In this document: positions 32,213 to 51,044 of the stretch, piece after piece
Layout: the number at the start of each line of letters is the position of its first letter
Numbering within the stretch: the first letter of the stretch is position 1
Assembly (NCBI GenBank): GCA_965279515.1
Contig: CBDIID010000003.1
Coordinates: 3,072,001-3,136,000, forward strand
From: Turneriella sp.
Lineage (GTDB): Bacteria > Spirochaetota > Leptospiria > Turneriellales > Turneriellaceae
DNA: 64,000 nucleotides
Direction of reading: 5' to 3'
Notes under the pieces: model-generated
The model's input: the letters and a program-made list of their open reading frames with translations, nothing else
What the model was told of the DNA's origin: nothing
The model's database searches: none
Made by a program: the position numbers and the translations under genes

Positions 32213-34309
32213 TTAATTAAACCAATGCGGCGTTTTTTGCGCCCACTCTGAAGCGGCAAAGTTCTTGTGTAACAGTTGGAAAGCCCTTTTTGAAATCTTG
32301 CCTTTCTCCGGAAAGTCGCAACCATAACGTGTGACTTTCACAAGCCGGTGCAGCGCCTCGGCGAGCCACGGCGCCGTCGGTGTTTTTTCGGCGACTGGAA
32401 AAATGCGCTCGGAGAAAAATACCGCGGCATTGCCCGCGCTCATCAGTTTTTGGTATTCGCCGCGGCCGTCGGCAAAAGCGTATGGCTTGGTAATTTTTGC
32501 CGGATAGAGCTGTGTGAAGAACGTCTCATCGAGGCCGGCATAGATACGGTAGTGATCCCACCCGATATTTTCTTTTTCAGTGCCGCCGAGCTTGCACCAC
32601 CAGTTTTCACGGAACGAGTCGATGGTGTCGGTTGAGCCGTCGCGGCCGTGGTGGCCGGCCACATAGGGCACAAGGCCGGGATTTCTGAGCAGTGTCAGCA
32701 AAGTCTCTTCGTCGGAGCCTTGCTTTTCCAGGGTCTTCGCGATGTTGCGATCGTTAACGATTAGATACGCCGCGAACCTTTTTGCATCCGCCTCAGATTT
32801 GAGGAGTATGCTGCGCACCCAACCCACGCGGGCGATTTCGATCTTACCGGGCTTCGAGAGCGCGGGCGAGGCCATGAGTGCCTCATAGTCTTTGAGCGAG
32901 GCATGCTCGGTGAGATAGCGCGCTGCGTCGCTGTCGAAGCCGAATTCATGCTCAGGTTTCTGGTTGTTGACCACCAGCAATTTGCGTTCGAGAACCGCCG
33001 CGGCCTCGGCCAAATTCTGTGCATAACGCAGCTTCACGGCCTTCAGGGCATTCAGCGAACTTGTGTCGCCGGCTTTTGTGAGTTTTTTCTCCAGGGTCTC
33101 AGCGAGCTTCGCGTCATAGCGCAGCGCGAGGCGGTAAAAGGCGATCGTGGTAAAAGCGGGATGGTCCGCGTCGATGCGCGCGGCATCCGTAAGATAGACA
33201 TCCTTCTTCGGCGAGTCGGCACCGAGTTTCGAAAGCACGGCCACGAGCCAATGCGGTTTTTTCGTCTCGCCATACTTACGTTCGGCCATAGCAAGGGATG
33301 CGGCATCCTGCGCCTGAAAGTTGTAGATCCATTGGGCCAGATCGTTGCCTTCGCTCATCAGCTTCGCCTTGTCGCTGCTGGTATTCGACCATTTGCGCAC
33401 AAGATAGCGGAATTCATGCGCGATCTCGACGGGGTTGCCCGTGGTGAGCTCGGCGATCAGGTTACGTGCATAGGACTTTTCATCACGGCGCGCCGCGAAG
33501 AGTTTTTTCAGTTTCTGGACATTGGCCTTTACATTGGGATTGCTCACGGCGGCGATTGTGGTTTCAAGCAGCTTCTCTATCTCCGCAGGCTTGGGGCCCG
33601 CGCCCGCAGCGAATTCCGTGAAGGCACCGGTCTGGCGCATGCGCGTGCGCACCATCATGTAGCGCGCGACGTCGCGGTGCAGGGAATTGCCTTTTGCGAG
33701 CGCTTCAAAACCCGCATAGGCCTTGTCGTATTCGTCGCGGTAAAAATAAAATGCCGACTGCTGGTAGAGAAAATCATTCTTCACCGCCTGCGGTGCATCC
33801 TTCGCGGGTGGCGTCAGCTGGCCCTTTTTTTCACTGCAGTTGGCGAAAACGACGTCTTGATTCTTGAGCCAGGTTTTGCCGTGGGTTGACTTGGCGCGCG
33901 CCGGCAACAGTTCGCGCGCATAGTGCAGCGCATCGCCGTGGCAGTTGGTCACATAGCGGTATGTGCCCGCGGGTTTATAGGGGGTCACCTTTTCTGCCGC
34001 GGCATCGGGAAAGAACTCTTTGCGCGCTTTGGCCCAGAGCGCCTCTTCATCCACATCGGTTTTTTGCGCTTCCACAAGGGCGATCGCGCGTGCGGGGTAG
34101 CTGGAACCTGAAAGCAGGGGATAGACCAGCGTGAGGTAGTCAGATTTGAAGGTGGCAAGAACAATGCCCGGCTCGCGCATACGCGCAGCATAGCTGCGCG
34201 ACGAACCCTCGGCATCGATCATCGGTGATTTCTCGAAAAAAGGTCCGCAGGGATAGAGGGCTGTGTGTAGCGCGGCGACGACGGCGAGCGTTTTAGCGAA
34301 GGTTTTCAT
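32213..34309 (-). CDS. Large helical exported protein, partner of the DUF3142-like gene
   Basis: Leader followed by CGP; C-terminal AEALH...TRYGC...SKRAFQLLH...WAQKTPHWF. Confidence 0.7.
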   Translation of the reverse strand: MKTFAKTLAVVAALHTALYPCGPFFEKSPMIDAEGSSRSYAARMREPGIVLATFKSDYLTLVYPLLSGSSYPARAIALVEAQKTDVDEEALWAKARKEFFPDAAAEKVTPYKPAGTYRYVTNCHGDALHYARELLPARAKSTHGKTWLKNQDVVFANCSEKKGQLTPPAKDAPQAVKNDFLYQQSAFYFYRDEYDKAYAGFEALAKGNSLHRDVARYMMVRTRMRQTGAFTEFAAGAGPKPAEIEKLLETTIAAVSNPNVKANVQKLKKLFAARRDEKSYARNLIAELTTGNPVEIAHEFRYLVRKWSNTSSDKAKLMSEGNDLAQWIYNFQAQDAASLAMAERKYGETKKPHWLVAVLSKLGADSPKKDVYLTDAARIDADHPAFTTIAFYRLALRYDAKLAETLEKKLTKAGDTSSLNALKAVKLRYAQNLAEAAAVLERKLLVVNNQKPEHEFGFDSDAARYLTEHASLKDYEALMASPALSKPGKIEIARVGWVRSILLKSEADAKRFAAYLIVNDRNIAKTLEKQGSDEETLLTLLRNPGLVPYVAGHHGRDGSTDTIDSFRENWWCKLGGTEKENIGWDHYRIYAGLDETFFTQLYPAKITKPYAFADGRGEYQKLMSAGNAAVFFSERIFPVAEKTPTAPWLAEALHRLVKVTRYGCDFPEKGKISKRAFQLLHKNFAASEWAQKTPHWFN

Positions 34310-34997
34310 GGATGCGGGCGAGCATTTGGGTAACGTCTTCGCGACGCCAAGCACGATTGCTAAAGAGATAGTACGTCTTTGCCTGGGGCAAAATCGGGTA
34401 GATCTCGTAAGTGGCGAGACCCACGGCATTCTGGCAAGGGGAGTCTTGCGGCAGGGCGTGGCGCGCACCACTATTTTTATGCGAAGGGTCGAAAAGCATG
34501 GGGACGACTTCGGCAATGTCCAAGCCCGCGAGCCAGTAGTCGCGGCCGCACCAACTCGCCAGCGCCGTAACAGACAACCGCAGCTTGGGATTTTCCTCTT
34601 TAATGGAGTGTATTAGACTCTTGTAGAATTCGCGCTGCGAATGAAAGACTTCGAAGTCGAGCTGCAAGGCCTCGGCCCCGCTGTTGGTCACGAGTTGCCG
34701 TATGGCATCGAGAATCAGCCGCTGCTGTGGAATTCCATAGCTATGCTGGCGGTGTGCACGCACATGCAGCACGGGCAGGGTGGGATGCCCCCCGGGTAAA
34801 AGGAGCGGTTTTGTGCGCGGCCGGAACACCGGCCTTTTTGCACCCAGATCGATTTCGCCCGCAAAGTAGGCGACGCCGGTTTCGTTACCCAGAAAGCGTA
34901 AATCTTCGGGGCGATCCCATGCCCAGAGATAGATGCGTGGCTCGGCGGCTAAGGCCGAAACCGTAAAAAGCAAGAGGCCGATGCCGCGGCGCATCAT
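34293..34997 (-). CDS. DUF3142-like protein
   Basis: LWAWDRPEDLRFL, LQLDFE, LSVTALASWC, VPMLF. Confidence 0.75.
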   Translation of the reverse strand: MMRRGIGLLLFTVSALAAEPRIYLWAWDRPEDLRFLGNETGVAYFAGEIDLGAKRPVFRPRTKPLLLPGGHPTLPVLHVRAHRQHSYGIPQQRLILDAIRQLVTNSGAEALQLDFEVFHSQREFYKSLIHSIKEENPKLRLSVTALASWCGRDYWLAGLDIAEVVPMLFDPSHKNSGARHALPQDSPCQNAVGLATYEIYPILPQAKTYYLFSNRAWRREDVTQMLARIHENLR

Positions 34998-34999
34998 GG

Positions 35000-36277
35000 T
35001 CAATAGCCGTACTTTTCGCCCCAGAGTTTTTTCAATTGCTCGCGGATTTCGCGTTCGCGGGCGTTATTGCCGGGTTCAAAAAGTTTCGTGCCCATAATCT
35101 TTTCGGGCAGATATTCCTGCGCCGAAAACCCTCCGGCTTGATCGTGTGAGTATTGGTAGTCTTTGCCATAACCGATATCTTTCATGAGCTTGGTCGGCGC
35201 ATTGCGCAGGTGCAGCGGCACGGGCAAATTACCGGTTTCGCGTACCACATTCTGCGCGGTGTTGATCGCCGCATACGAGGCGTTGCTCTTGGGTGAGGTC
35301 GCAAGATAGGTCGCGGCTTGGGACAGAATAATGCGTGCCTCGGGATATCCGATCATATTCACGGCCTGGAAGCAGGTCGTGGCGACGACGAGCGCGGTCG
35401 GGTTGGCATTGCCGATATCTTCAGAGGCCGCAATCACCATGCGCCGCGCGATAAACAGCGCGTCTTCGCCACCCTCGATCATGCGCGCGAGCCAGTAAAC
35501 CGCGCCGTTGGGGTCGCTGCCGCGGATCGACTTAATGAAGGCGGAGATGATGTCGTAGTGGTTGTCGCCCGCCTTGTCATAGAGCACGGGATTTTGCTGC
35601 ACGAGTTCGAGAACTTTCGCGTCGGTGATTTCGATCGGGTCGCCGGCGATGCCATCGATCACGAGCTCAAATACATTGAGCAAACGCCGCGCATCGCCGC
35701 CCGAAAGTCGGAACAGGGCTTCGGTTTCGGCGAGCTCAATTTTCCGCGTTTTGAGAAAGCTGTCCTTTTGCATCGCGGTAGTTAATAACGAGAGTAAATC
35801 CGCCTCATCGAGATTTTTCAGAATGTAGACCTGGCAGCGCGACAAAAGCGCAGAAATCACCTCAAACGAAGGATTTTCCGTTGTGGCGCCGATGAGCGTG
35901 ATCTTGCCGGTCTCAACCGCGCCGAGCAGCGAATCTTGCTGCGCCTTCGAAAAACGGTGGATCTCGTCGATGAACAGCACGGGCTTCTCGGTAAAGAGCC
36001 CGCCGCCCGAGGCCTTCTCGATCACCTCGCGGATATCTTTGACACCCGAGTTGATCGCGCTCAGCGCATAGAAGGGGCGCTTCAGCTCGCCCGCAAGAAT
36101 ATGCGCGAGCGTCGTCTTGCCAACGCCGGGCGGCCCCCAGAGAATAATCGAAGGCAAATTCTTACTCTCAACCGCGCGGCGCAGCACAGCACCCTCGGCG
36201 ACGAGATGTTTCTGCCCGACATAATCGGCCAACGACTTCGGCCGCATCCGTTCGGCGAGGGGAATTGTGGATTTCAT
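35000..36277 (-). CDS. rarA: Replication-associated recombination protein A (AAA+)
   Basis: PLAERMRP, WGPPGVGKTT, DEIHRF, GATTENPSF, SAFIKSIRGSD, ASEDIG. Confidence 0.95.
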   Translation of the reverse strand: MKSTIPLAERMRPKSLADYVGQKHLVAEGAVLRRAVESKNLPSIILWGPPGVGKTTLAHILAGELKRPFYALSAINSGVKDIREVIEKASGGGLFTEKPVLFIDEIHRFSKAQQDSLLGAVETGKITLIGATTENPSFEVISALLSRCQVYILKNLDEADLLSLLTTAMQKDSFLKTRKIELAETEALFRLSGGDARRLLNVFELVIDGIAGDPIEITDAKVLELVQQNPVLYDKAGDNHYDIISAFIKSIRGSDPNGAVYWLARMIEGGEDALFIARRMVIAASEDIGNANPTALVVATTCFQAVNMIGYPEARIILSQAATYLATSPKSNASYAAINTAQNVVRETGNLPVPLHLRNAPTKLMKDIGYGKDYQYSHDQAGGFSAQEYLPEKIMGTKLFEPGNNAREREIREQLKKLWGEKYGY

Positions 36278-36522
36278 TTTGGTGTTGAGAATGACCGTAA
36301 CGGTATTTTCATCTGACCCCTCAAGCTATCTATTGTCAATTTTTCAGGGTTTCTCTCGGTTTTAGGCTGGAAGCCGCTGGGGAATTATGTCGCATTTTGG
36401 GTAATAGCCGATGGCAGAGTCTGTTTTTAGGGCAAATACGATTTGACGTAAGGTTCTCGCGGTTCGGTCGTGGGAAAATGTCGCCGAGTATTCAGGTTAG
36501 CGTGTGCATTAAGGAATTTTTG

Positions 36523-36807
36523 ATGCCACTTGTCAGAGATGTTTTGGTGCTGGGAAAGCAGGCGGCTATTGGGCCCGCTGCGATGAGCAGGGCATTGAAT
36601 TTTTTGCATGCCCGGAAATTTACATTGCTCAGCATCGAGGATGAAGTTATTGAGGGTGTTTTCATCAGGGATACGTTGCTCAAAAAAATTCCAGAACAAA
36701 AGGTGATTAGTCTCATATTGCAGCATGTTAAACCGACGATGCAGGAATCGGAGATTCTTAAGATCGATCTGGATGTAGAACTGCGTATAGAGGATGTATT
36801 CCTGTGA
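36523..36807 (+). CDS. Small hypothetical protein
   Basis: AAGGA RBS before ATG 36523; GTGA overlap with the next gene. Confidence 0.6.
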   Translation: MPLVRDVLVLGKQAAIGPAAMSRALNFLHARKFTLLSIEDEVIEGVFIRDTLLKKIPEQKVISLILQHVKPTMQESEILKIDLDVELRIEDVFL

Positions 36808-37874
36808 CACAAGCAGCGCTTTTGACGGAAGTTAAAAATTGTGTTTGCGTGAAATTGTTTGATCGTGTCGCCGAATGCACTGAGATTGAAGGTGACAGGG
36901 AATCTACACACTTTGTTGTGATGGCCGAGCACGGATTTGATAAAGTCGTCGCGCCTTCTGATTTGCCCCGCTTTCCGAATTTCCGGGTTTTTGCAGATAT
37001 CAAGCCGCGGAGCAAATGGGCCCTGCTGGAAAATTTCGAAGATGTAGAGAAAATCGATCGCTCAGGTTATTGCGGTGTAGTGCATTTTAACAAGAGCCAG
37101 GGGCGCCACGTGCTCTACCGGTTTCTTGATGAGGAAGCGATGTCTGTTGCCGCGCGGGTTGAGAAGAGTTACGAAGATTACCTGGCCTTTCTCGCCCACG
37201 AGTTCCGCAATGTTGCGCATGGAGTTCTGAAAATCAGCGAGGTTAATTTTATGAAATTCAATCCCGCTGAATTTTTGAAGGTCGTGGGCGAAAAAATAAC
37301 GCAACTTACCTCGGTTTACCTTGTACCGGACAGGAAAATGCAGTATGCCTCTGAGGCTTCGTATGCCACGAAGATTTCTTTGGCCCGATTCGTAAGAAAT
37401 GCCCAATTGATTGTGGAGCCGTCCGCAATCGCCGCTGGCGTGAAAATCTCAACCTTTGTTTGCGCAAGGGCGCATGAAAAAATCACGATCTCCGAAACTC
37501 ATCTTCTTCAAGCGCTCGTGAATTTGCTGCTGAACGCGATACGCTATGCCGGTTTTCATGCCAATGTGCACCTTAATGCCCGGCTGGAAACCGATGGGTC
37601 TGGTCTGGAAAGCGTATGCTTCGCCGTTTCGGACGATGGCCCCGGCATTATCGAAGCTGAACGCGAGAAAATATTCGAGAAGAAGTACCGCGGACGCGAG
37701 TCCAGTAGCGTCGCCGGCTCGGGTTTGGGCCTATCTATTGTGCAAGATATGGCGCACAGGGTTGGTGGTGAGTGCGGCGTAAATTCACCCCCTGAGCTGT
37801 ACCTTGTACAACCCGGAAAAGGTGCGGAATTCTGGATTCGTGTACCGTTAGCCCGGGATTTCAAGGTTGCTTAA
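36804..37874 (+). CDS. Soluble sensor histidine kinase
   Basis: AHEFRN H-box, NLLLNAIRY, DDGPGI, GSGLGLSIV; no obvious TM segment. Confidence 0.85.
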   Translation: MTQAALLTEVKNCVCVKLFDRVAECTEIEGDRESTHFVVMAEHGFDKVVAPSDLPRFPNFRVFADIKPRSKWALLENFEDVEKIDRSGYCGVVHFNKSQGRHVLYRFLDEEAMSVAARVEKSYEDYLAFLAHEFRNVAHGVLKISEVNFMKFNPAEFLKVVGEKITQLTSVYLVPDRKMQYASEASYATKISLARFVRNAQLIVEPSAIAAGVKISTFVCARAHEKITISETHLLQALVNLLLNAIRYAGFHANVHLNARLETDGSGLESVCFAVSDDGPGIIEAEREKIFEKKYRGRESSSVAGSGLGLSIVQDMAHRVGGECGVNSPPELYLVQPGKGAEFWIRVPLARDFKVA

Positions 37875-38061
37875 ATCTCTGCAGAACCTCTTCTAATCGC
37901 AGCGTCTGCATGGCGCCGACAGCATTCTCCCAGCGCCCCTCTGCACACAGCCCACTCACACCCGCAGCCTCATACGCCGCCTGCGCGGCAGCAATACAGG
38001 CATCGCGCACCACCGCAGCCAGCTCATCAGGGCTCAACTCTGATCGTAGTTTACCGGGCAT
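37861..38061 (-). CDS. Small conserved hypothetical protein (66 aa) whose start lies inside repeat copy 1
   Basis: MPGKLRSELS...VRDACIAAAQAAYEAAGVSGLCAEGRWE; I recall this motif from a small family often mis-annotated as acetyltransferase; backbone-like high GC. Confidence 0.7.
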   Translation of the reverse strand: MPGKLRSELSPDELAAVVRDACIAAAQAAYEAAGVSGLCAEGRWENAVGAMQTLRLEEVLQRFKQP

Positions 38062-38090
38062 GGGGTAGGGACGCGGGTGGAATCGGCGCG
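38042..38090 (+). repeat. Cassette repeat copy 1
   Basis: GATCGTAGTTTACCGGGCATGGGGTAGGGACGCGGGTGGAATCGGCGCG. Confidence 0.9.
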
Positions 38091-38121
38091 TAAAGATTGT
38101 TAGGGGGAGCCGCATAGATAT

Positions 38122-39048
38122 ATGAAAACACTTCAGATTCATGATTTTTCAAAAATTTTGGATAAATTTGATCGAAAGGATAACATGTCTTCACCAAAGA
38201 TATATGATACTGCAAAAGCTGAAAATTTCAAGAACGAATTCGAAAATTTAGCGAAGACTCTCCAAGCCGATAAATACTGCGTAGTTGGAATCGATATACT
38301 TGGTTATAGTCAATATGAATTTGAAACTCAGGCAATAATTCCACCAGTATTTAAAATACTATTGGATGAGGTCCTCAGACACCTTGTGGGTGCTGAATAT
38401 TTTCTGTTTCATTCTCACACAGAGACTGATCTGCGAAAAAAATTTATTTCTACCGGGGATGGTGGATTCTTGGTTTTGGAAAATCCTCTACAAGGTTTGA
38501 TATGTGCCCTTAAATTTGCCTCGATTCTCCATTTGTTTAATTCTTATAGTTTCTATCCAAGTATGCGCAAGTATTTAGGGGAACTTAAGGTTCGTTATTG
38601 TTTAACCTATAACTCAGTTTTTGAGTTTGAAAGTAACTTCTTTGGATCGGGCCTTATAAACAATGCTCGAATTATGTCACGCGATAAGCTTGACCGCTGT
38701 CTAATGGATAAGGATTCATATACTTGGTTCCTCGAAAAAATAAATGGTCTTGAATCTTTGCAAATATTTGACATGAAAGAAATTTCCGTAAAGCTCGGTA
38801 TTCCGATTCCTAGCCTACCGAAGGGGCCTTTTAGCTACTCAGGAATATTGAACACGCCTTTTGACAAGCCTCGGCTGCGCGCCATAGTGACCCAGAAAAT
38901 CGGATCGGTAAAAGCTAAGGCTCAATTGCTCGACGTATACAACCTGTTCGTCCAAGTATCAACCACTTATCTGGAGGAAACCACTCATGAGCCAGACAAC
39001 TATGTTGTGAATTTAGGAAATCTCAATACGGTCGGTATCGCCGATTGA
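38122..39048 (+). CDS. Soluble class III nucleotide-cyclase-like protein (cassette cargo)
   Basis: VGIDILGYS, STGDGG and FGSGLINNARIM correspond to the cyclase D, GD and G..VN.A.R motifs. Confidence 0.65.
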   Translation: MKTLQIHDFSKILDKFDRKDNMSSPKIYDTAKAENFKNEFENLAKTLQADKYCVVGIDILGYSQYEFETQAIIPPVFKILLDEVLRHLVGAEYFLFHSHTETDLRKKFISTGDGGFLVLENPLQGLICALKFASILHLFNSYSFYPSMRKYLGELKVRYCLTYNSVFEFESNFFGSGLINNARIMSRDKLDRCLMDKDSYTWFLEKINGLESLQIFDMKEISVKLGIPIPSLPKGPFSYSGILNTPFDKPRLRAIVTQKIGSVKAKAQLLDVYNLFVQVSTTYLEETTHEPDNYVVNLGNLNTVGIAD

Positions 39049-39176
39049 TGCAACGTTTGGCGCAACTTTCCAACCATGAAACAGATACGAATATTTTTTT
39101 TGGGATGCTCATTCTAAGCTGCAAAGATTCAAATGAGAACTTAACTACGCCAAAACAAAGTAAAACAAGCAAGCTT

Positions 39177-39201
39177 GCAGGTGGAATTGGCGGGGGAGGG
39201 G
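39177..39201 (+). repeat. Cassette repeat copy 2 (right half only)
   Basis: GCAGGTGGAATTGGCGGGGGAGGGG, identical to the right half of copy 5. Confidence 0.85.
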
Positions 39202-39205
39202 CGAC

Positions 39206-39499
39206 ATGAAATATCAGCTAGTGCTTCAATTTCCCGAGCCAAGGGAAGATCCTTTCGATTTTATTGAGCGCCTTAGCGAAGAGATTGAGGCAAATCTGAA
39301 GCATGTCTCAGATTTTGATGGGCATGATATTGGTCAGGGTGAAATTAATTTTTTCATTCGCACGGATTGGCCTGAAAGAGAATTTGAAAATCTCTTTAAC
39401 CTATTAGATACGAAAGAATTAAGAGCTGGCTATCGAGATTTTGATGAAGACGAGTATAAAAGTTTGTTTCCCCACGGCTCAAAATTTCAAGTTAAATGA
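39206..39499 (+). CDS. Small acidic conserved hypothetical protein (cassette cargo)
   Basis: MKYQLVLQF...DGHDIGQGEINFFI...LRAGYR; the GGAGG RBS lies within the repeat. Confidence 0.8.
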   Translation: MKYQLVLQFPEPREDPFDFIERLSEEIEANLKHVSDFDGHDIGQGEINFFIRTDWPEREFENLFNLLDTKELRAGYRDFDEDEYKSLFPHGSKFQVK

Positions 39500-39549
39500 A
39501 ATAGTCGCAGGGAGGGGGTAGCGTCAGCAATGGCCTGAGATAGACATGT

Positions 39550-39996
39550 ATGGCAAAATATACATATAGCGAGTATCCACCAACCTTAGCCGAGGCCAGC
39601 ATCCCATATGCGGAATTTTTGAAGACGCAAAATTTACCGGGCCAGATAATTTGGGTAAGGCCATCACAAATTTTAATTTGGCGCCGAACCTGTTATGTAA
39701 AGAATCCAGGTAAGAACAGCTCAGAAGTTAACGATTTGTATAAAAATAACTATAAACGCTTTGGAGCACGGGTTGATGGTCTCGGACCTTTAGATAATCA
39801 AGTAGTAGCTCAAATTACAATGCCATTAAATGATCTGACAGCCCAATATCGTCAGGTCGGGACAAGTCACTTAGGCTACAGTATGCTAGTTGAGCCCATT
39901 AGATGCAAAGCTGTGCATTCCAATCTATTCTGGCGCGTTTTGCAGATGCTTGGGGCTCGCCATTGGGAAGAAGAGCCCAACCGCTTGCTGATGTAA
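39550..39996 (+). CDS. Hypothetical protein (cassette cargo)
   Basis: 148 aa AT-rich ORF. Confidence 0.65.
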   Translation: MAKYTYSEYPPTLAEASIPYAEFLKTQNLPGQIIWVRPSQILIWRRTCYVKNPGKNSSEVNDLYKNNYKRFGARVDGLGPLDNQVVAQITMPLNDLTAQYRQVGTSHLGYSMLVEPIRCKAVHSNLFWRVLQMLGARHWEEEPNRLLM

Positions 39997-40057
39997 GATC
40001 GAGGCACGACTACAATCAATACGCGCCAGTAGCGGAGAGCTCACGCAGAGTTTTTCC

Positions 40058-40114
40058 AATCGTAGTTTACCGGCCACCGTGTGTGGGCGCGGGTGGACTG
40101 GCGGGGGGGGGGGG
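40058..40114 (+). repeat. Cassette repeat copy 3, with a G12 tract
   Basis: AATCGTAGTTTACCGGCCACCGTGTGTGGGCGCGGGTGGACTGGC followed by 12 G. Confidence 0.92.
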
Positions 40115-40141
40115 CGAAACCCCCAAGAAAGATAGAACAAC

Positions 40142-40390
40142 ATGAGTGAAATAATTCAAGCCCATCAGTATTCAACTAATAACAGAAAATTAATTGAAAA
40201 TAGCTCACTTTGTGGTTGTTATTATTGTAAAAAAATATATTCAGCGGTAGAAGTTACAGATTACTTAGCGGAAGGCTCTGGTACTGCGCTTTGTCCGAAA
40301 TGCGGTATCGATTCTGTTTTACCTGATAAGAGCGGCTTTCAAATAACAAAGGATTTTTTGAAGTCAATGCATGCGTATTGGTTCTCATAG
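40142..40390 (+). CDS. Small Zn-ribbon-like conserved hypothetical protein (cassette cargo)
   Basis: CGCYYC and TALCPKCGIDSV motifs. Confidence 0.8.
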   Translation: MSEIIQAHQYSTNNRKLIENSSLCGCYYCKKIYSAVEVTDYLAEGSGTALCPKCGIDSVLPDKSGFQITKDFLKSMHAYWFS

Positions 40391-40404
40391 GAATAGGATA
40401 TTCC

Positions 40405-40454
40405 GATCGTGGTTTACCGGCCGCGGGACGTGGGCGCGGGTGGATTGGCGGGGG
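40405..40454 (+). repeat. Cassette repeat copy 4
   Basis: GATCGTGGTTTACCGGCCGCGGGACGTGGGCGCGGGTGGATTGGCGGGGG. Confidence 0.92.
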
Positions 40455-40498
40455 CGTCAGATTCGGCGGCTCAATTCCAGTAACCAGGGAGGTTGGTT

Positions 40499-41344
40499 TT
40501 GTCAGAAAAATACATTCAGAAAAATGACCCAAATTTAGTCCGTGAAGTCGGTATTTGCCGGGATATCCTGGAATCCATGCGACAAAGCGGATTGAAAGAT
40601 TTAGCAATCACCAATGTGGACTTCAATTTTACCTCCGATGATAAAGAAGAGCTGAAGGGTCTACAGGCCGACTTGGCTGCTGAATTCAAATTTAAAGTCG
40701 ATTACCTGAAATCCATCGCAACAATACGTCGCGAATATGAGCTTTCCATAGAAATGCAAGGTGTTATCATCAGCGATGACCTTTTAATTTTTCTCATTGG
40801 CTACCTATTCACGAAAGCCTTGAACCATAACTGCTGTTTCGGTGACTGGGGCGCAAGCGTCTCAGATAAAATCTATGACTTAAAGGTGGCGACGAAGGAT
40901 GCATTACAAGATAAAGGGTATGAGTATTATCATGGACAACGATTTTACCTCGCTTACCAGTCTTTTTATCTAGCCAACTTAAAAAAAGCCACTGCCGAAC
41001 TGGAGTTCAATCTGGGATGCCTTAAGTATGATTATGGTTTTCGGGGTGATGCAACCGACCATTTTACAAATGCCATTACTATAGATCCGAAAAATCTAAC
41101 GCCATATCTCAACCGCGGCGTTGCTTATTACGATATGCAAGAATATGAAAAAGCCATTTCAGACTATCAGATGGCAACGCGCGATGAGCCCAAGAACCCT
41201 AGCCCGTACATCAATTTGGGGAATGCTTATATCAAGCTCGGAAACAAGGACTTGGCAATCCAAAATTATGACAAGGCGATTGCCTTAGGCGCTGAAGATG
41301 GGCCGAAGATTAAGGCCCATGGACTTAGCCAAATTCAGCTTTGA
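40499..41344 (+). CDS. TPR protein with a possible RraB-like N-terminal domain (cassette cargo)
   Basis: GGAGG 6 nt before TTG 40499; VDFNF...FGDWG; TPR motifs YLNRGVAYY and YINLGNAY. Confidence 0.78.
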   Translation: MSEKYIQKNDPNLVREVGICRDILESMRQSGLKDLAITNVDFNFTSDDKEELKGLQADLAAEFKFKVDYLKSIATIRREYELSIEMQGVIISDDLLIFLIGYLFTKALNHNCCFGDWGASVSDKIYDLKVATKDALQDKGYEYYHGQRFYLAYQSFYLANLKKATAELEFNLGCLKYDYGFRGDATDHFTNAITIDPKNLTPYLNRGVAYYDMQEYEKAISDYQMATRDEPKNPSPYINLGNAYIKLGNKDLAIQNYDKAIALGAEDGPKIKAHGLSQIQL

Positions 41345-41904
41345 TGAACTCAATCCGTATTGAAACAAAGAGATTGATCCTACGCACCTGGCAGCGCGAA
41401 GATCTGAGTGATTTCGCGGCTATGAACGCAGATCCCGATGTGATGCGGTTTTTCCCGGCGCCGCTGACGGCAAACGAATCCGGGTTGTTATTTGAAAGAC
41501 TGATTCGCCATTTCGAACTGAAAGGCTTCGGTCTATTTGCGCTTGAACTGAAATCAAGGCCAGGTTTGATTGGATTTACTGGCTTATCAACGGTGACCTT
41601 TACCGCACCGTTTGGCGAAGATATTGAATTAGGGTGGCGCATCATGCGCGAATACCAAGGGAATGGTTATGCAACCGAGGCCGCAAATGCGGCAAAGAAT
41701 TACGGGTTCGATGTATTGGGTCTCAAATCGCTTGTGGCATTTACTGTGCCAACGAACTTGCCATCCCGAAGGGTCATGGAGAAAATCGGCATGGTTCATA
41801 ACCCTGACGATGATTTTGATCACCCGAGAGTCCCTGAGCATCATCCGCTAAGGCGGCATGTGCTGTATAGAGTTGGGGCAACGAGTTCGGCTATTTCGCT
41901 CTGA
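41344..41904 (+). CDS. RimJ/RimL-type GNAT N-acetyltransferase (cassette cargo)
   Basis: IETKRLILR, ELGWR, QGNGYATEAA, NLPSRRVMEKIGM, HVLYR; its TGA lies at the left edge of repeat copy 5. Confidence 0.92.
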   Translation: MNSIRIETKRLILRTWQREDLSDFAAMNADPDVMRFFPAPLTANESGLLFERLIRHFELKGFGLFALELKSRPGLIGFTGLSTVTFTAPFGEDIELGWRIMREYQGNGYATEAANAAKNYGFDVLGLKSLVAFTVPTNLPSRRVMEKIGMVHNPDDDFDHPRVPEHHPLRRHVLYRVGATSSAISL

Positions 41905-41961
41905 TCGTAGTTTACTGGCTACGGGGTGTGGGCGCAGGTGGAATTGGCGGGGGAGGGGGGG
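41903..41961 (+). repeat. Cassette repeat copy 5
   Basis: GATCGTAGTTTACTGGCTACGGGGTGTGGGCGCAGGTGGAATTGGCGGGGGAGGGGGGG. Confidence 0.92.
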
Positions 41962-41980
41962 AAAGCCTCGGGAAGATATT

Positions 41981-42397
41981 TTGAGACTAAATATTCATAC
42001 AGTTTACATTCATTTTGTTGATGGCGTTGAGGCATTTCGGCCAGTCAAAGCTTTGGTTGATTTGCAAGGTTGCTCACAGATATTACCAACTGCAGATTAC
42101 GACCCAACAGATAGGACAGAATTATGGTCTTTCAGACCTGGGGATAAGGTTCTGGTAAGAAATCAAGAATTCGGTAAAGACAAGACGATCGGCGATCTTG
42201 CTTACGCGCCATATAGAGAAGCCGAACAAATAAAGGACCTGAATTGGTTCCTCTATAATTTAGTGTTAGAAAAAATCCAGCTCGGCAAACCGATTCAAGA
42301 ATCTCACGCTGATTTTATTAACCAAATTAGAAACGATTTGGCACAGGGCATTTTTCATTATCCGGTCATCAAGGAAAAGATTCAGGATTTAGGATAG
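41981..42397 (+). CDS. Hypothetical protein (cassette cargo), TTG start inferred
   Basis: AT-rich ORF with FRPVKA and ELWSFRPGDKV motifs. Confidence 0.65.
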   Translation: MRLNIHTVYIHFVDGVEAFRPVKALVDLQGCSQILPTADYDPTDRTELWSFRPGDKVLVRNQEFGKDKTIGDLAYAPYREAEQIKDLNWFLYNLVLEKIQLGKPIQESHADFINQIRNDLAQGIFHYPVIKEKIQDLG

Positions 42398-42463
42398 TAC
42401 CTTGAACCGGGGCCTTAAGATGACAAAAAATGCCGCGATTACTGTGGTGGCTGGCTCCCGCCC

Positions 42464-42516
42464 GATCGTAGTTTACCGGACACGGGATATGGGTGTGGTG
42501 GGATTGGCGGGAGGAG
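42464..42516 (+). repeat. Cassette repeat copy 6
   Basis: GATCGTAGTTTACCGGACACGGGATATGGGTGTGGTGGGATTGGCGGGAGGAG. Confidence 0.88.
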
Positions 42517-42551
42517 CGTTGACCCCCAGCAGCCATACTAGGAGAATATTC

Positions 42552-43079
42552 ATGCAAGAATCAACTGAAGTTAAGATATTAGCTGGTGGTCCGCGAGCAG
42601 CAGTTATTAGCATTTTGACATTGGGCTTACTTGGAATATTCCTAAGATTCGCTTCGAGTAACTTTAATCCTCAAAACGAAATACCAGAAATTATGTTCCG
42701 CATCATTCTTCTTGCGCCATTTGCTTGGCTATTACTTAAACCTTCAAAGATCGCCTATCAAGGTGTTTTAGCCGTATTCGGAGTAAATTTACTGATCAGT
42801 TTAATAATCACCATCCAGGCTCCGACGCCGATAATCATCGTCCCTTTAATAATGCAGACAGTATTAGGCATTTATCTTTTCTCATCTTACGCACAGGCTT
42901 TTAGTACGAAGTCAAAAAATACGGTTAAGCGCATTTATGCGCAGGCCCGGGAGGCTGAATCGAAAAAGCAGTATTTGGAAGCTAAGAATCTATACGCGCA
43001 GGTAGTGACAGAGTATCCTGGCACCTTGGAGGCCGAACTCGCTGCGGAATGTTTGCAACATTTGCCGCCAACCGTTTGA
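42552..43079 (+). CDS. 4-TM membrane protein with a C-terminal TPR-like motif (cassette cargo)
   Basis: AGGAG RBS before ATG 42552; four hydrophobic segments; AKNLYAQVVTEYPGTLEA. Confidence 0.72.
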   Translation: MQESTEVKILAGGPRAAVISILTLGLLGIFLRFASSNFNPQNEIPEIMFRIILLAPFAWLLLKPSKIAYQGVLAVFGVNLLISLIITIQAPTPIIIVPLIMQTVLGIYLFSSYAQAFSTKSKNTVKRIYAQAREAESKKQYLEAKNLYAQVVTEYPGTLEAELAAECLQHLPPTV

Positions 43080-43117
43080 GTCTTCTAAGCTTAATTGGAA
43101 AGATTGCTAACAGAGAA

Positions 43118-43918
43118 ATGAAATTCTTAGTTTTGATAATTCTGATCATAATGCAAGTGCCAGCCTGCTCGAAACCACCTAAAACGGAGCCATTCGAGTG
43201 CAAGTGCTATTACAGATTTAGCTCGAATGACGTGAAACAAGTCCCTTTCGATCCCGACAAGAGTCACTCACTGTACGAAAAGCAAGAGTATGATAAACTT
43301 ATGGATTTGTGTCTTGCGTATGAAAAGCCCAGCCGTGAAGCGATTGGATGGCTCGCCGAAGCTTCCTTTGCGATCGCAGAGATAGGAGCTGGAAATGGGG
43401 TGCCCAATGGTTCACCGGAGATATACCTTGATAGCGCGTCTGATGAAATAGCTCACGATTATAGCCATGCAACAGAACGCCCCGCTCATTATTGGCCCAA
43501 GGAAATACGGTTCCGCTATGGTGCTTTAGCCATTTGCGCAACATCGTGTTATGCAGAGACAACAAACCCTGAGGACGAAAATTATTCTGAATACCAGAAA
43601 AGGCTACTCGTAGTCTTAATACGAACCAAGCAGTATGGTGAAATTCACAATTTCATAAAATCTGCAAAAGCATCGGGCATGTTGAAGAGATTGGATGCAA
43701 CTTTTTTTCTGGACCTTGGTTCTCAATTCATTAAGTTAAGTGACCTTATTGAAGGAGTTCGATACATTAAATTCCTGCATAAACACATTCCACAACAGAA
43801 AAATCAATTAACTTATTGGCGTAAGTTATTCTTATACGCGGCGGAGCATGACCAAAGACTCGGCGTTATGCAAAGAAATCATGCAAAATCAGAAATCGAT
43901 AAAACATTTCCGCAGTAG
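43118..43918 (+). CDS. Hypothetical lipoprotein (cassette cargo)
   Basis: MKFLVLIILIIMQVPA-C leader. Confidence 0.7.
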   Translation: MKFLVLIILIIMQVPACSKPPKTEPFECKCYYRFSSNDVKQVPFDPDKSHSLYEKQEYDKLMDLCLAYEKPSREAIGWLAEASFAIAEIGAGNGVPNGSPEIYLDSASDEIAHDYSHATERPAHYWPKEIRFRYGALAICATSCYAETTNPEDENYSEYQKRLLVVLIRTKQYGEIHNFIKSAKASGMLKRLDATFFLDLGSQFIKLSDLIEGVRYIKFLHKHIPQQKNQLTYWRKLFLYAAEHDQRLGVMQRNHAKSEIDKTFPQ

Positions 43919-43940
43919 CCAATCTGATCGGGCTCGTTTT

Positions 43941-43996
43941 GATCGTAGTTTACTAACCACACGGTATGGGCGCGGGTGGATTGGCGGGGGAGAGGG
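43941..43996 (+). repeat. Cassette repeat copy 7
   Basis: GATCGTAGTTTACTAACCACACGGTATGGGCGCGGGTGGATTGGCGGGGGAGAGGG. Confidence 0.92.
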
Positions 43997-44006
43997 TAAG
44001 ACTCGA

Positions 44007-44420
44007 ATGATAAATCTCCTGAAATTCCTAAAGAGACTTTGGCCAAAGGAGAAAGAACTTTGGACTGAAGAAAAGAGCGAGGCTAAACAATGTCTCCATT
44101 GCGGTCGGCTCGGTTCGGGCTATCGAATAAGCTCCCCCGGTCAACTTGCGGAGACAATATTAATTCTGCAAGAGATGCTTAACGACCAAACGCTATCAGA
44201 GGTGCCAAATCTGAAAGGCATGGTTCAGAAGCACAACAAACCATTTGGCCGCGTGTCTGCACGAGGAAAGTGGGAGGATACGCTTATCTACGATTTCGAA
44301 TGTAAGCACTGCCATGATTTTTTTCATTTGGGAGTAGATACCTACCATGGAGGCGGTGGTAGATTGAAGAGAATAGGTCCAGAAATCCAGTATGATAGAT
44401 ATGGTAATACGCTTGCTTAG
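44007..44420 (+). CDS. Hypothetical protein with two CxxC motifs (cassette cargo)
   Basis: CLHC; FECKHC...LGVDTYHGGGG. Confidence 0.72.
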   Translation: MINLLKFLKRLWPKEKELWTEEKSEAKQCLHCGRLGSGYRISSPGQLAETILILQEMLNDQTLSEVPNLKGMVQKHNKPFGRVSARGKWEDTLIYDFECKHCHDFFHLGVDTYHGGGGRLKRIGPEIQYDRYGNTLA

Positions 44421-44433
44421 AATGCTCATTTAC

Positions 44434-44484
44434 GATCCGGGTTTACCCGGCACGGCGCGTGGGCGCGGGCGGAATTGGCGGGGG
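44434..44484 (+). repeat. Cassette repeat copy 8
   Basis: GATCCGGGTTTACCCGGCACGGCGCGTGGGCGCGGGCGGAATTGGCGGGGG. Confidence 0.9.
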
Positions 44485-44503
44485 AAGCGGAATTACATAA
44501 ACT

Positions 44504-44776
44504 ATGAACCCAAATAAAATGCCGGTTCTGAGTTTTTGGCCGCGCTTCTTTTTGGATTTATTGGCAGCCGTTACGATGACTATTGTTGGTATGTGGGGAA
44601 CATACCTGTTCTCACTTTCTGACTTCTGGCCCTCTCTTCGCCATCCTGGCGGGGGGCAACACAGTGACCTTAGGGATTTAGTTGAAAACCATTACTGGCT
44701 TATAATTTTAATCGGTACAGTCACTCTTACTTATTATCAACAAGCCAGAAGGCGAAAATCAGGTACGCAGAAATAA
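44504..44776 (+). CDS. Small 2-TM membrane protein (cassette cargo)
   Basis: Two hydrophobic segments and a basic tail. Confidence 0.6.
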   Translation: MNPNKMPVLSFWPRFFLDLLAAVTMTIVGMWGTYLFSLSDFWPSLRHPGGGQHSDLRDLVENHYWLIILIGTVTLTYYQQARRRKSGTQK

Positions 44777-44863
44777 TTGTGCAACTTTGATGCATGTAGG
44801 GTGATGTGCCAAGCCTCCCGCACAGTAGCGGTAACCTTGGCCGGGCGCCTAGACCACTTTTTC

Positions 44864-44896
44864 TTGACGATGCGCTTGTTGTACAATAAATTGTAC
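44864..44896 (+). promoter_or_regulatory. sigma70-type promoter and operator of yefM-yoeB
   Basis: TTGACG (44864) - 17 bp - TAAATT (44887); palindromes TTGTACAA (44879-44886) and GTACAA-taaa-TTGTAC (44881-44896). TGTACA is the E. coli yefM operator core. Confidence 0.75.
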
Positions 44897-44899
44897 CTA

Positions 44900-45148
44900 A
44901 TGGAAGCCGTATCTTACAGCGATCTCCGGAAAAATCTCAAGAAGTACATGGATGATGTATACACAGGCCATTATCCCCTGATCATTACGAGAAAAAATGA
45001 TGAGAATGTTGTCATGATTTCTTTAGATGAGTTTAACGCCTTACAAGAAACCAACTATCTCCTGGCATCAGACGCGAATGCAAAACATCTCAAAAAATCT
45101 ATATCACAGCATAAATCCGGCAAGTTGAAACAAATCAAGATTGCTTGA
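44900..45148 (+). CDS. yefM: Phd/YefM antitoxin
   Basis: YSDLRKNLK, PLIITR, VVMISLDEFNALQETNYLL..ANAKHL. Confidence 0.93.
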   Translation: MEAVSYSDLRKNLKKYMDDVYTGHYPLIITRKNDENVVMISLDEFNALQETNYLLASDANAKHLKKSISQHKSGKLKQIKIA

Positions 45149-45405
45149 TGAATGTTTTATTTACGGACGCCGGTTGGCAGGACTACATTTACTGGCAAAC
45201 GGAAGATCGAAAGACTTTAAAGAGAATCAATGATCTTATTAGAGATATCAAACGATCGCCTTATGAAGGCATCGGAAAACCAGAACCGTTGAAGCATCAA
45301 CTACAAGGGTATTGGTCCCGCAGAATTGATCCGGAACATCGGCTTGTTTACCAGGCTGAGGGCAATAAGACACTGATTATCATTGCCTGTCGTTATCATT
45401 ACTAA
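45148..45405 (+). CDS. yoeB: Txe/YoeB toxin
   Basis: WQDYIYWQ, GIGKPEPLK, WSRRID.EHRLVY, CRYHY. Confidence 0.95.
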   Translation: MNVLFTDAGWQDYIYWQTEDRKTLKRINDLIRDIKRSPYEGIGKPEPLKHQLQGYWSRRIDPEHRLVYQAEGNKTLIIIACRYHY

Positions 45406-45449
45406 GTCAGCACTGCGGTCAGCGGCAGCGAGTCGAGGAGTATGGCACC

Positions 45450-45501
45450 AATCGGCATTTCACGGCCACGGGGTGTGAGCGCGGGTGGAATTGGCGGGGG
45501 G
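45450..45501 (+). repeat. Cassette repeat copy 9
   Basis: AATCGGCATTTCACGGCCACGGGGTGTGAGCGCGGGTGGAATTGGCGGGGGG. Confidence 0.88.
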
Positions 45502-45567
45502 ACGTAAATCCAAGAGCTATTTTCCTGAAATATTGCCGCGAGTCTGAAAATAGTCGACATTCCATAC

Positions 45568-45586
45568 GTATATTGTAAACATATAC
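45568..45586. promoter_or_regulatory. Probable brnTA operator
   Basis: GTATAT-N7-ATATAC inverted repeat abutting ATG 45587; TCGACA -35-like box at 45554. Confidence 0.55.
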
Positions 45587-45886
45587 ATGATAATTCCTGA
45601 TTTTGAAGCCGTGGAAGGCTTTGAATGGGGCAAAGGGAATGTAGACAAAAATTATGATAAGTACCAGGTTACAAATCTTGAATGCGAAGAAATTTTCATG
45701 AACGAACCGCTGCTGATATTTTCAGACGATTTGCACTCAAATAACGAAGACCGATACACTGCCTTTGGCAAAACAAACCACTTTCGGTTTCTCGCATTGA
45801 CTTTCATTCTAAGAAAGAACCGAATTCGTGTTGTTTCAGCGCGCGATATGTCAGCGAAGGAGAAAAAGCAATATGAAAACACTTAA
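45587..45886 (+). CDS. BrnT family toxin
   Basis: GFEW..GN..KN, ECEEIF, HS..EDRY..FGKT, IRVVSARDM. Confidence 0.9.
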   Translation: MIIPDFEAVEGFEWGKGNVDKNYDKYQVTNLECEEIFMNEPLLIFSDDLHSNNEDRYTAFGKTNHFRFLALTFILRKNRIRVVSARDMSAKEKKQYENT

Positions 45887-46148
45887 AAAAATGCCCAAAT
45901 TCAAGACTGAGGATGCAGAGAGAGAATTTTGGGCAAAGAACGACTTTACTGACTTTCTGGATTTTTCGAAAGGCATCAAGGCTAAATTTCCCAACCTAAA
46001 ACCTTCGACCCAGACCATTTCGCTGCGATTGCCGGAGTCACTACTGACCGATATCAAAGTTTTAGCGAACAGGCAAGACGTGCCTTACCAGTCCTATATC
46101 AAAATGCTTTTAGCGGAGAAGATTGCGGAAAAGCTTCGTAAGCGATGA
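45873..46148 (+). CDS. BrnA/CopG-like antitoxin
   Basis: PKFKTE..EREFW, ISLRLP, DVPYQSYIK. Confidence 0.9.
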   Translation: MKTLKKMPKFKTEDAEREFWAKNDFTDFLDFSKGIKAKFPNLKPSTQTISLRLPESLLTDIKVLANRQDVPYQSYIKMLLAEKIAEKLRKR

Positions 46149-46191
46149 TTTAGGGCCACAGCATTCACCAATCTCGATCCAATTCGCTTCC

Positions 46192-46223
46192 CATCGTAGT
46201 TTACCAACCTAGGGGCGAAGGCG
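46192..46223 (+). repeat. Cassette repeat copy 10 (decayed, terminal)
   Basis: CATCGTAGTTTACCAACCTAGGGGCGAAGGCG aligns without gaps to the left part of the consensus. Confidence 0.78.
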
Positions 46224-46345
46224 AAGAGGTCGCCATCGCTTTCAAGTGTTCTCCCTTTGTTTTTGACATGCTGCGCGATCAAAAGGGCTTCCGGCCCGCT
46301 CCGTATCTGGCCTCGCGGCAACGTCGAGCTTAACAAACTCATTTC

Positions 46346-47911: not shown

Positions 47912-47980
47912 ACCTTATCAAAAAACAGTTGCCGGAATGTTTTGCCCACGAAAGATCCATTGGAATCAAAGTATTTTTTA

Positions 47981-48454
47981 ATGGCTTCTCCCCGCAAACT
48001 CAAAGAAATTAAAATCGATCGAATTTTAGTGGTTCTTGCGGGGCTGCGCGAAATTGTCATGGAAGAGCTGGCGGATTCATACCGCCGGCTGCATGTCCAT
48101 GACATCAACCCGCCCCATGGTGCCGTTCTTTGCGCCCTGCAAACCAAGCAGCCCACCACGATGCTTGAAATTGCCGGGAAAATATTCCGGGATCAGTCGA
48201 CCGTTACCGCTCTTGTTACGCATTTGACGACGCTGGGTTACGTTAGGGTAATTCAGTCGCCCAAAGACAAACGGAAACGATTCGTCGAATTGACCGATCA
48301 GGGAAAAGAATTGCGCGCCAAAGTTACCAAAGCAGCCCGTAAGATTCAAAGACAGATTTTTGACGGGATTCCATCCCGGGACAGGAAAAAACTGATGGAG
48401 ATGCTCGTGCAGATTGGGCATAACCTGCACAGCCCGCATTTTTCAGAGCAATAA
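47981..48454 (+). CDS. MarR family regulator
   Basis: DQSTVTALV, GYV, DKRKRFVELTDQG; divergent from the two preceding genes. Confidence 0.88.
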   Translation: MASPRKLKEIKIDRILVVLAGLREIVMEELADSYRRLHVHDINPPHGAVLCALQTKQPTTMLEIAGKIFRDQSTVTALVTHLTTLGYVRVIQSPKDKRKRFVELTDQGKELRAKVTKAARKIQRQIFDGIPSRDRKKLMEMLVQIGHNLHSPHFSEQ

Positions 48455-50556: not shown

Positions 50557-50620
50557 ATTCTCCGTCTGCGGGATTTTTCCTGTACCGTTGATCCGCATTC
50601 ACAGTTGATTCCGGCAGGCG

Positions 50621-50995
50621 ATGGTAAGCACAATAATACATGCCCAAAAAGAATGGGAAGTTATCTTCAATGAGGGCAAAAACTGGCGTATCGGTATCTA
50701 TCGCCCTAAATACCGCGGCGCAGCGGAAATCCATGAACTGGAACAGCACACCTGCCCCGAGTCGTTTCTGCTGCTTGAGGGCGAGCTGACGATGCTCTAT
50801 CGGCAGCCGGACGGCTCGCTGGCGGAAAAACAGCTACGGCCCATGGAGCTGACGACCTTTACCGAGCCGCATGCGGGCTTTTCTCCCGATTTGTCAGGTG
50901 TTGCTTTTGTCGTCGAAAATGCTGCGTTCGAAACTAGTTATACAGATATCCAGACGCAGGCAGTAACGCGAACGGTTCGCGTCGGTCCCGCTTAA
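50621..50995 (+). CDS. Cupin-like hypothetical protein
   Basis: EQHTCPESFLLLEG...H...VVEN. Confidence 0.6.
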   Translation: MVSTIIHAQKEWEVIFNEGKNWRIGIYRPKYRGAAEIHELEQHTCPESFLLLEGELTMLYRQPDGSLAEKQLRPMELTTFTEPHAGFSPDLSGVAFVVENAAFETSYTDIQTQAVTRTVRVGPA

Positions 50996-51044
50996 GATCT
51001 GGTTTTGATTTACGCCGCGTCGTTTGACGCTTTAGCTGGCGGCC

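Follow-up and report, generated by a model that had tools for sequence, protein, structure and literature searches.

Copies of a gene start separate short cargo genes in Turneriella sp.: a variant form of tandem cassette accretion, possibly served by an integron-like recombinase

How did the first codons and upstream region of one small gene come to be repeated, again and again, between short genes of foreign composition? The question is raised by a stretch of 64,000 nucleotides (nt) from Turneriella sp., a free-living spirochaete (contig CBDIID010000003.1, positions 3,072,001 to 3,136,000), referred to here as the window. On its minus strand lies a gene encoding a protein of 66 amino acids (aa), and a repeat overlapping the first codons of this gene recurs rightwards as eight full copies, one right half and one left block. 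The array is real: it is a variant form in which cassettes have accumulated in tandem at the end of a gene, and the proposed involvement of an integron-like recombinase can be tested. The gene and the copies are located as follows.

37861..38061, minus strand: the 66-aa gene (GLCAEGRWE), of a widespread uncharacterised family, with a likely leaderless start at ATG 38061.
38040..38101: copy 1, the native gene start (codons 1-8), the upstream region and the -35 box, without the run of G residues (G-run).
39177..39205: copy 2, right half only, from the repeat comparison.
40000..40125: copy 3, its left side in register with gene codons ~8-28.
40403..40466: copy 4, a profile match.
41901..41970: copy 5, a profile match.
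42462..42525: copy 6, a profile match.
43910..44000: copy 7, with left homology to gene codons ~8-18; it overlaps the preceding stop codon.
44432..44495: copy 8, a profile match.
45448..45508: copy 9, with an exact CGTAAA box 6 nt farther from the GTG than in copy 1.
46190..46204: copy 10, reduced to its left block, from profile and alignment.

The anchors of the full copies fall at 38043, 40059, 40406, 41904, 42465, 43942, 44435 and 45451, with the right half at 39177 and the left block at 46193. A profile built from the eight full copies and run against the 4.9-Mb genome returned these eight at 44-52 bits, high scores that they reach on their own profile by construction, together with the partial copy 10 at 11 bits; outside the array the repeat was absent from the genome. 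Pairwise BLAST comparisons between copies gave E values as low as 8e-10, far beyond chance. What remains of copy 2 (39177-39201) matches copy 5 exactly over 25 nt, and copy 10 retains only the left 12-15 nt. Each interval between copies holds one to three genes, all on the plus strand and with a G+C content of 36-45% versus 53% for the genome; the units measure 0.3-1.4 kb. The 15.5 kb in question is spanned by two contigs from public runs with no differences, both from one study that is possibly the source of this assembly. Family scans and the list of open reading frames (ORFs) revealed neither a recombinase gene nor an integrase remnant within the array.

The ORF of the small gene opens with ATG CCC GGT AAA CTA CGA TCA (MPGKLRS), and ATG 38061 is likely the start of the gene, with no leader. 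The stronger evidence for this assignment is the spacing of a promoter-type box, rather than the conservation of MPGKLRS.

38089..38094, minus strand: -35-type box TTTACG, 33 nt before the ATG, with the same spacing in five of eight orthologues.

A T[TAG]TAC[GT] box stands exactly at -33 from the start in six of nine loci, this one included; in relative G003 the start and the core are in different frames. Over the whole genome, TTTAC is most frequent at -33 relative to ATG (50 of 3,410 ORFs, versus ~5 typical at other offsets) and TTGAC at -34/-33, with 70 at -34. When scored with a matrix built without it, the promoter of copy 1 ranks at the top among 10,132 TTTAC sites. The alternative start at TTG 38037, some way downstream, has no box at -33 and was rejected; the start likely lies at the repeat, as the earlier note on this DNA had expected. 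The check it proposed, whether MPGKLRS is conserved, came out poorly, the motif being retained in one of 29 close homologues, P0001, which begins MPGKLRSELS (ten residues identical) and has a different C-terminus; two further homologues have related N-termini. An upstream ATG at 38142, which would yield the 93-aa protein of one database record, was also rejected, for it overlaps the first cargo gene and is needed by no close homologue.

As a separate observation, TTGAC/TTTAC boxes in this genome cluster tightly at a distance of 33-34 nt from a following ATG or GTG, and the -10 signal is weak (A at -10, T at -6). This pattern may well reflect a large class of leaderless promoters. A literature search, with limited coverage of subscription papers, returned nothing on leaderless genes in Turneriella.

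The 66-aa protein belongs to a family of 867 clusters at 50% identity. Neither Pfam nor NCBIfam provides a match, and some databases label the family 'acetyltransferase'. The predicted structure consists of three helices, and no structural match to this fold was found at E 0.001. The gene is present in eight of the 13 other genomes of the genus and absent from all six other genera of the family and all 400 other genomes of the phylum.

What are the copies, then? The comparisons support derivation of the repeat from the 5' end of the 66-aa gene together with its upstream region, and the earlier identification of copy 1 as that 5' end agrees with the reading MPGKLRS and with the homology of the copies on both flanks, which makes it firmer than the note had put it. 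Leftwards from the core, in-register homology to the gene extends for ~59 nt in copy 3 and ~33 nt in copy 7 (p ~0.0025 each), and the statement that the GTG-bearing copies all run into unrelated sequence is thus incorrect. The left-flank homology of the other six copies is not significant singly; the summed left-flank score is 42 versus a null of 11.5 ± 6.8, and a banded test gave 111 versus 75.7 ± 7.1. To the right, copies 2-9 carry a G-run of 4-11 nt that is missing from copy 1, followed by a decayed -35 box (p <0.0002 for the box-plus-spacer homology, and p 0.008 in a stricter test). Judged by alignment, the repeat unit is longer on this side than first described, extending through the G-run into the decayed box. 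Beyond the GTT of copy 1 there is no homology in the other copies (p 0.5). A model in which copies 2-9 are simply copy 1 minus 15 nt was rejected, since the flank after the G-run is unlike the continuation of copy 1 (p 0.5). At the position of the start codon the alignment displays GTG in copies 3, 6, 7, 8 and 9, as reported before, with GCG in copy 4, GTA in copy 5 and TAG in copy 10.

The copies are worn to different degrees. Differences from a leave-one-out consensus amount to 4, 4, 4, 7, 8, 9, 7 and 21 for copies 3 through 10, a rise from left to right with rho 0.87 and p 0.005 (rho 0.80 and p 0.02 when copy 10 is left out). Such decay fits entry of new units near copy 1. The left-to-right age gradient put forward earlier is borne out in this respect, but not by the phylogeny: the tree of the copies is star-like, none of its five inner branches is supported, and neighbouring copies are not more alike than others (Mantel rho 0.09, p 0.28).

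Copy 1 stands apart. In eight columns it differs where at least six of the seven other copies agree, and it departs from each full copy at 10-15 of ~50 positions. These columns, the unsupported branches and the lack of likeness between neighbours argue that the present copy 1 was not the template of copies 2-9, and the adjoining copy 2 is half deleted. Copy 1 alone has the correct promoter spacing, whereas the G-run shifts the box to about -37 to -44 in copies 2-9. On the strength of the ancestral -33 spacing and the match to P0001, copy 1 looks native on both sides of its ATG. Of the suggestion that each acquisition duplicated or restored the gene start, one part stands, namely that the copies derive from the start region; copy 1 does not look like something supplied by the newest element.

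Within copies 3-9 the right block is better conserved than the middle (8/154 versus 20/91 differences, p 1e-4), while the left block has 9/84 differences (p 0.07). This suggests some function within the copies. Two candidates for it were tried and rejected: a conserved hairpin, for which pairing and covariation do not rise above shuffled controls, and a cargo-strand promoter, for which the copies reach the 57th-87th percentile of TTTAC sites and fall below the lower quartile of the promoter set. Note that on the plus strand, at 38072-38101, the right block loosely resembles the adjacent box-plus-GTT, in the manner of a direct repeat ~15 nt upstream. Accessory repeats of this kind are carried by attI1 (PMC12901181).

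The locus in related genomes provides the background against which the array must be seen. The small gene lies directly upstream of rarA in five of the eight relatives that carry it, and its upstream neighbour in G001, G003 and G006 is a gene found at the far side of the variable interval in the window.

35000..36277, minus strand: rarA/mgsA, which adjoins the small gene in five relatives; here a two-gene insert lies between.
50612..50996, plus strand: conserved gene, the direct upstream neighbour of the small gene in G001, G003 and G006, and the right limit of the variable interval.

Empty alleles, which the earlier note had called for, occur in three relatives, where the small gene adjoins the conserved gene that lies at ~50.6 kb in the window. 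On this distribution the 66-aa gene is a genus-level backbone gene. Arrays upstream of it in other genomes, for which the note had also proposed a check, were not found: in seven relatives no copies of their own gene start lie within up to 10 kb upstream, the top scores of 20-28 being at null level, whereas the same test applied to this genome as a positive control gives nine windows scoring 44-66. G012 was left out of this test, its contig ending 350 nt upstream. The inserts at the small-gene interval in G011 and G007 contain no recombinase recognisable by ORF inspection and no gene-start copies, and among 19 relatives no cognate integrase-bearing element was found at the small-gene site.

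Several side observations concern this interval. The insert that parts the small gene from rarA here (36397-37874, plus strand) holds a 136-aa ORF and a histidine-kinase-type ATPase gene. To the right of the array, six further genes at 46240-50560 are missing from the empty alleles and lack repeats; one of them encodes an S-adenosylmethionine methyltransferase (49918), a paralogue of which, with 48% identity, lies within giant array 1, described below (C3:149,208). In G010, two 188-nt palindromic elements (L219:3301-3488 and 5083-5270), 87% identical and resembling miniature inverted-repeat transposable elements, flank the small gene and two neighbours.

Searches for the array elsewhere were negative within their scope. 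A covariance-model search of 19 same-family genomes gave four weak matches (E 0.06-0.17) that a sequence profile did not confirm, and three ATCGTAGTTTAC matches in relatives were dismissed as chance. The exact pattern occurred in 104 metagenome and 75 genome stretches of public collections, with one match each and none above 14 bits; ~173 matches are expected by chance in the genome collection. Viral contigs contained no small-gene homologue and three chance pattern matches, and among the 20 of 46 plasmid records listed, the match is confined to the YoeB region. No account of such an array and no paper on an integron in Turneriella was found in the literature, where subscription papers are poorly covered.

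If the array harbours no recombinase, what could have built it? The genome contains 152 matches to a profile of attC-like sites of ~230 bp, mostly in two large arrays, and none of these matches lies inside the gene-start array. The giant cassette arrays (G000:C3:90.7-170.7 kb and 3734-3805 kb, plus scattered sites) have no adjacent integrase; on the minus strand, close to C3:170,670, there is a candidate attI. An isolated attC-like site is located with a toxin-antitoxin-like pair and a partial second site at G000:C3:3,059,300-3,060,400, ~12 kb before the window. A scan with PF00589 identified four tyrosine recombinases, two of them XerC/D-like and two solo, the nearest being ~183 kb from copy 1. 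The two solo enzymes, encoded at C3:2926093-2927193 and C3:2781225-2782130, appear to lack the insertion specific to IntI. The genome also encodes a single reverse transcriptase, a single Y1 transposase and, next to a tRNA-Glu gene, a single large serine recombinase; genome scans detected no Cas1 and no IS110.

It is at the right end of copy 1 that the two systems may meet.

38087..38101, plus strand: box, 4 nt and GTT, a candidate docking site similar to the ends of the giant attC-like sites; the crossover would fall between G 38099 and T 38100.

On a matrix built from 129 giant attC-like ends this segment scores 15.1 bits. Outside attC, 51 sites in ~9.7 million positions reach 15 bits or more, and only one of 178 TTTAC promoter candidates reaches 15; the equivalent position in five relatives without an array scores -11.7 to 6.6 bits. 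Since the GTT is oriented towards the cargo strand and located past the -35 box, a cut there would leave the promoter of the small gene intact.

On the basis of these features, the reading we prefer, at somewhat under an even chance, is that the units are cassettes ending in a copy of the docking site, much like delta-attI cassettes, and docked by an integron-like recombinase acting in trans. The segment at 38087-38101 would act as an attI- or attG-like double-stranded site cut at G^TT, with the promoter left on the chromosomal side, which would explain why copy 1 has stayed native. Each unit would consist of one or more genes plus, where attC would normally stand, a duplicate of the docking region, as in cassettes of the delta-attI type, and a build of this sort would explain the gene sequence left of the cut in each unit. 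New units would enter beside copy 1 and displace older ones rightwards, the docking being performed from a distance by the genome's own integron-like recombinase. Copies 2-9 would stem from an allele with a GTG start and a G-run, different from the present copy 1; most units would then likely have been put together in a related strain, or would predate a replacement of copy 1. Copies without GTT would be poor excision sites, and the row would be stabilised. A bolder and more doubtful proposal is that the -35 box of a host promoter mimics the recombinase box and has thereby become a new attI, the array being a satellite whose cassettes have swapped the 230-bp attC-like site for a promoter copy.

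A good deal weighs against this preferred reading. The high matrix score is no proof of an attI, since the matrix describes attC ends and the candidate attI of the largest giant array itself scores only 0.8 on it; part of the 15.1 bits, moreover, stems from promoter function, the matched box being the -35 box. GTT occurs only in copy 1, the best scores of the other copies being -0.1 to -20, and its loss would be unexpected for faithful delta-attI cassettes. The shared GTG and G-run demand an extra step, and the conservation of the right block is left unaccounted for. A possible remnant of an attC end was visible behind yoeB alone (p 0.012, selected after inspection), and none of 13 stop-codon flanks compared with 114 of the genome's own cassette ends was significant. 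Of seven loci carrying cargo homologues in relatives, two are flanked by giant attC-like sites, which speaks for this reading, but five are without attC. Four contig runs of one study contained no recombination joints, and the array is known from one genome only.

Comparison with described systems places the array between categories. Cassettes of the delta-attI type, known as single cases from class 1 and class 2 integrons, consist of an ORF that is followed not by attC but by part of the primary site, and they are recombined by IntI1 (PMC12901181). Likewise, each unit here ends in a fragment homologous to copy 1, which would be the primary site. Those cases are rare, lie beside intI and employ an integron integrase with a crossover at G^TT (PMC12901181); here the G^TT is a candidate, no integrase is adjacent, every unit is so built, and the docking region is the start and promoter of a host gene. 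Retention of the G^TT core is expected there, whereas GTT is absent behind copies 2-9. Integron integrases also insert cassettes outside the platform, at chromosomal GWT sites (attG) in double-stranded DNA (bioRxiv 10.1101/2022.09.11.507474). Such insertion brings attC along, whereas this array is without an attC body, and the available text on attG describes no row of target copies. With integrons proper the array has in common short, co-oriented cassettes of foreign composition. It differs in that no integrase gene lies beside it, the repeat ends in ATC/GAT rather than AAC/GTT, no attC follows the cassettes, and the fold does not exceed shuffled sequences. Because the defining integron features are missing and those of delta-attI are present in part, the array, though laid out like both, is classed as neither.

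The strongest competitor, which is the model of the earlier note and possible but on balance unlikely, is tandem accretion of the kind described for integrative and conjugative elements (ICE), integrative and mobilizable elements (IME) and cis-mobilizable elements (CIME). A visiting integrase would have cut within the first codons, each element would have supplied a spare start and promoter, and older elements would have shrunk to CIME-like remnants without an integrase. The mechanism is a known one: modules separated by direct repeats of a target-gene end, many of them lacking an integrase, are reported for such elements and for the ssrA islands of Dehalococcoides (PMC5704250; PMC3146451). 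Six of the eight full copies have GTG or ATG at the start position with a -35 remnant behind each, the ragged left ends and the left-to-right decay are what erosion would produce, and the columns invariant in all nine copies, AAA-N4-GAT on the gene strand, form a plausible core. Against it, the ancestral -33 spacing and the ten first residues shared with P0001 suggest that copy 1 was not replaced. The box of copies 2-9 is displaced by the G-run, though two orthologues have theirs at -38/-39, and copy 10 reads TAG where the original start would be expected. The array holds neither an integrase remnant nor any integration gene, and its units of one to three genes are small and tightly trimmed. 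Finally, what would serve as target here is a gene both small and dispensable, at its promoter and 5' end. Accretion would explain the GTG that the copies keep, along with a displaced box, but neither the native look of copy 1 nor the TAG of copy 10.

An improbable alternative dispenses with a dedicated recombinase altogether. The repeat would be a portable regulatory module, with units gained and shuffled by homologous recombination, as in the PeSL cassettes of T4-type phages, or gene ends displaced in the manner of the WHO elements at yeast FBA1. The ragged left ends are again accommodated, a star-like tree with near-identical right halves (copies 2 and 5) fits gene conversion, TTTAC occurs on the cargo strand in eight of nine copies, and a GGAG-like run precedes several cargo starts. 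The same TTTAC sites, however, rank modestly as promoters, as stated above, and several cargo genes have boxes of their own. A stretch of 50 bp at ~80% identity is a poor substrate for RecA. The PeSL cassettes do resemble the array in their short repeats between small accessory genes, but they carry strong promoters and terminator stem-loops (PMC2839356), neither of which is supported here. The WHO elements, for their part, leave old, divergent fragments of the host gene end beside the gene, with cargo between and the newest fragment nearest; they differ in being eukaryotic, in lying at a 3' end and in carrying a homing endonuclease as cargo (PMC7282813). Scans of the array cargo with Pfam, NCBIfam and PADLOC detected no endonuclease family, several cargo proteins being without any family.

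That the repeat could be a small version of attC, acting as a folded single strand and bearing GAT where GTT is expected, is very improbable. The left block ATC-N4-TTTACC after each cargo stop is indeed laid out like the AAC-N4-TTTACC end of the giant sites, and the sequence can be arranged as a bulged hairpin in which 81% of cells pair. Yet 141 (pairing) and 109 (covariation) of 500 shuffles reach the observed values, single-copy folds mostly have z above -2, RNAalifold predicts a different structure at -3.4 kcal/mol, and the copies reach into coding sequence of the gene, which is unexpected for attC. The idea that the small gene belongs to the mobile unit or to its machinery, each unit having once held a whole copy, can draw on the extension of copy 3 to codon ~28, an 11/12 match to the gene's 3' part on the left of copy 10 (p 0.02 prior to correction for nine tests) and the absence of the gene from 400 other genomes of the phylum, which implies acquisition by the genus, but it is hardly credible given that eight orthologous loci carry the gene without any repeat, that neither DNA nor protein profiles detect another remnant of the gene in 38100-50600, and that the predicted fold has no structural match.

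Other origins left no trace in the scans made. CRISPR-like duplication finds no Cas1 in the genome, and copy 1 is unlike all full copies. An origin from a tRNA or tmRNA end was rejected, as these ends differ and the right block is unmatched outside the array at up to five mismatches. A test for dispersed repeats, such as repetitive extragenic palindromes (REP) and their associated transposases (RAYT), returned a single locus only, and Rfam gave no match at E 1 in 34000-50000.

The cargo between the copies comprises the following features.

38122..39048, plus strand: first cargo gene, encoding 308 aa; Leptospira, Bacteroidota and Fibrobacter have homologues of 287-354 aa.
39076..39176, plus strand: stub of a frameshifted lipoprotein-like gene, as it appears to read.
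39206..39499, plus strand: ORF of 97 aa, no family match.
40142..40390, plus strand: Cys-rich ORF of 82 aa, from the ORF list.
40493..41904, plus strand: TPR protein (40493-41344) and GNAT acetyltransferase (41341-41904), from family scans.
41982..42397, plus strand: ORF without a family match; the frame is open from 41858, with TTG 41982 as the presumed start.
42552..43918, plus strand: membrane protein (42552-43079) and 266-aa protein (43118-43918), from ORFs and family scans.
44007..44420, plus strand: ORF of 137 aa with two CxxC motifs, from the ORF list.
44504..45405, plus strand: 90-aa ORF and a YefM/YoeB toxin-antitoxin pair (44900-45405), from family scans.
45587..46148, plus strand: BrnT toxin and CopG-type antitoxin, from family scans.

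One homologue of the 308-aa protein is named a guanylate-cyclase domain protein. The 308-aa and 266-aa proteins were not found in 13 same-genus genomes each, nor the 137-aa protein in 19 relatives, and the 82-aa protein has a homologue in only one of 33 relatives, in an ordinary-looking context. In G011, a yefM/yoeB homologue (79% DNA identity) and a GNAT homologue lie between giant attC-like sites. A separate TTGAC box precedes the ATG of the membrane protein gene (42552-43079) by 33 nt. A single deletion may have both truncated the lipoprotein-like gene and removed the left half of copy 2.

Elsewhere in the assembly, the small contigs G000:C1 and C2 are internally repeated with periods of ~23.5 kb and ~6.6 kb and may thus be concatemers or circles assembled beyond their length; a DNA methyltransferase gene is present on C2.

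The locus bears on how attI sites and new cassette arrays arise. If accretion by visiting elements proved correct, the locus would be one more tandem accretion at the 5' end of a gene, and of modest importance. If, on the other hand, the box of a host promoter has indeed become a docking site, a new integron platform would have arisen at an ordinary promoter, together with a type of cassette that needs no attC. For distinguishing between them the locus offers a defined candidate site (15 bp in a 60-bp promoter), two candidate enzymes and an attC-like control substrate, all within the same genome.

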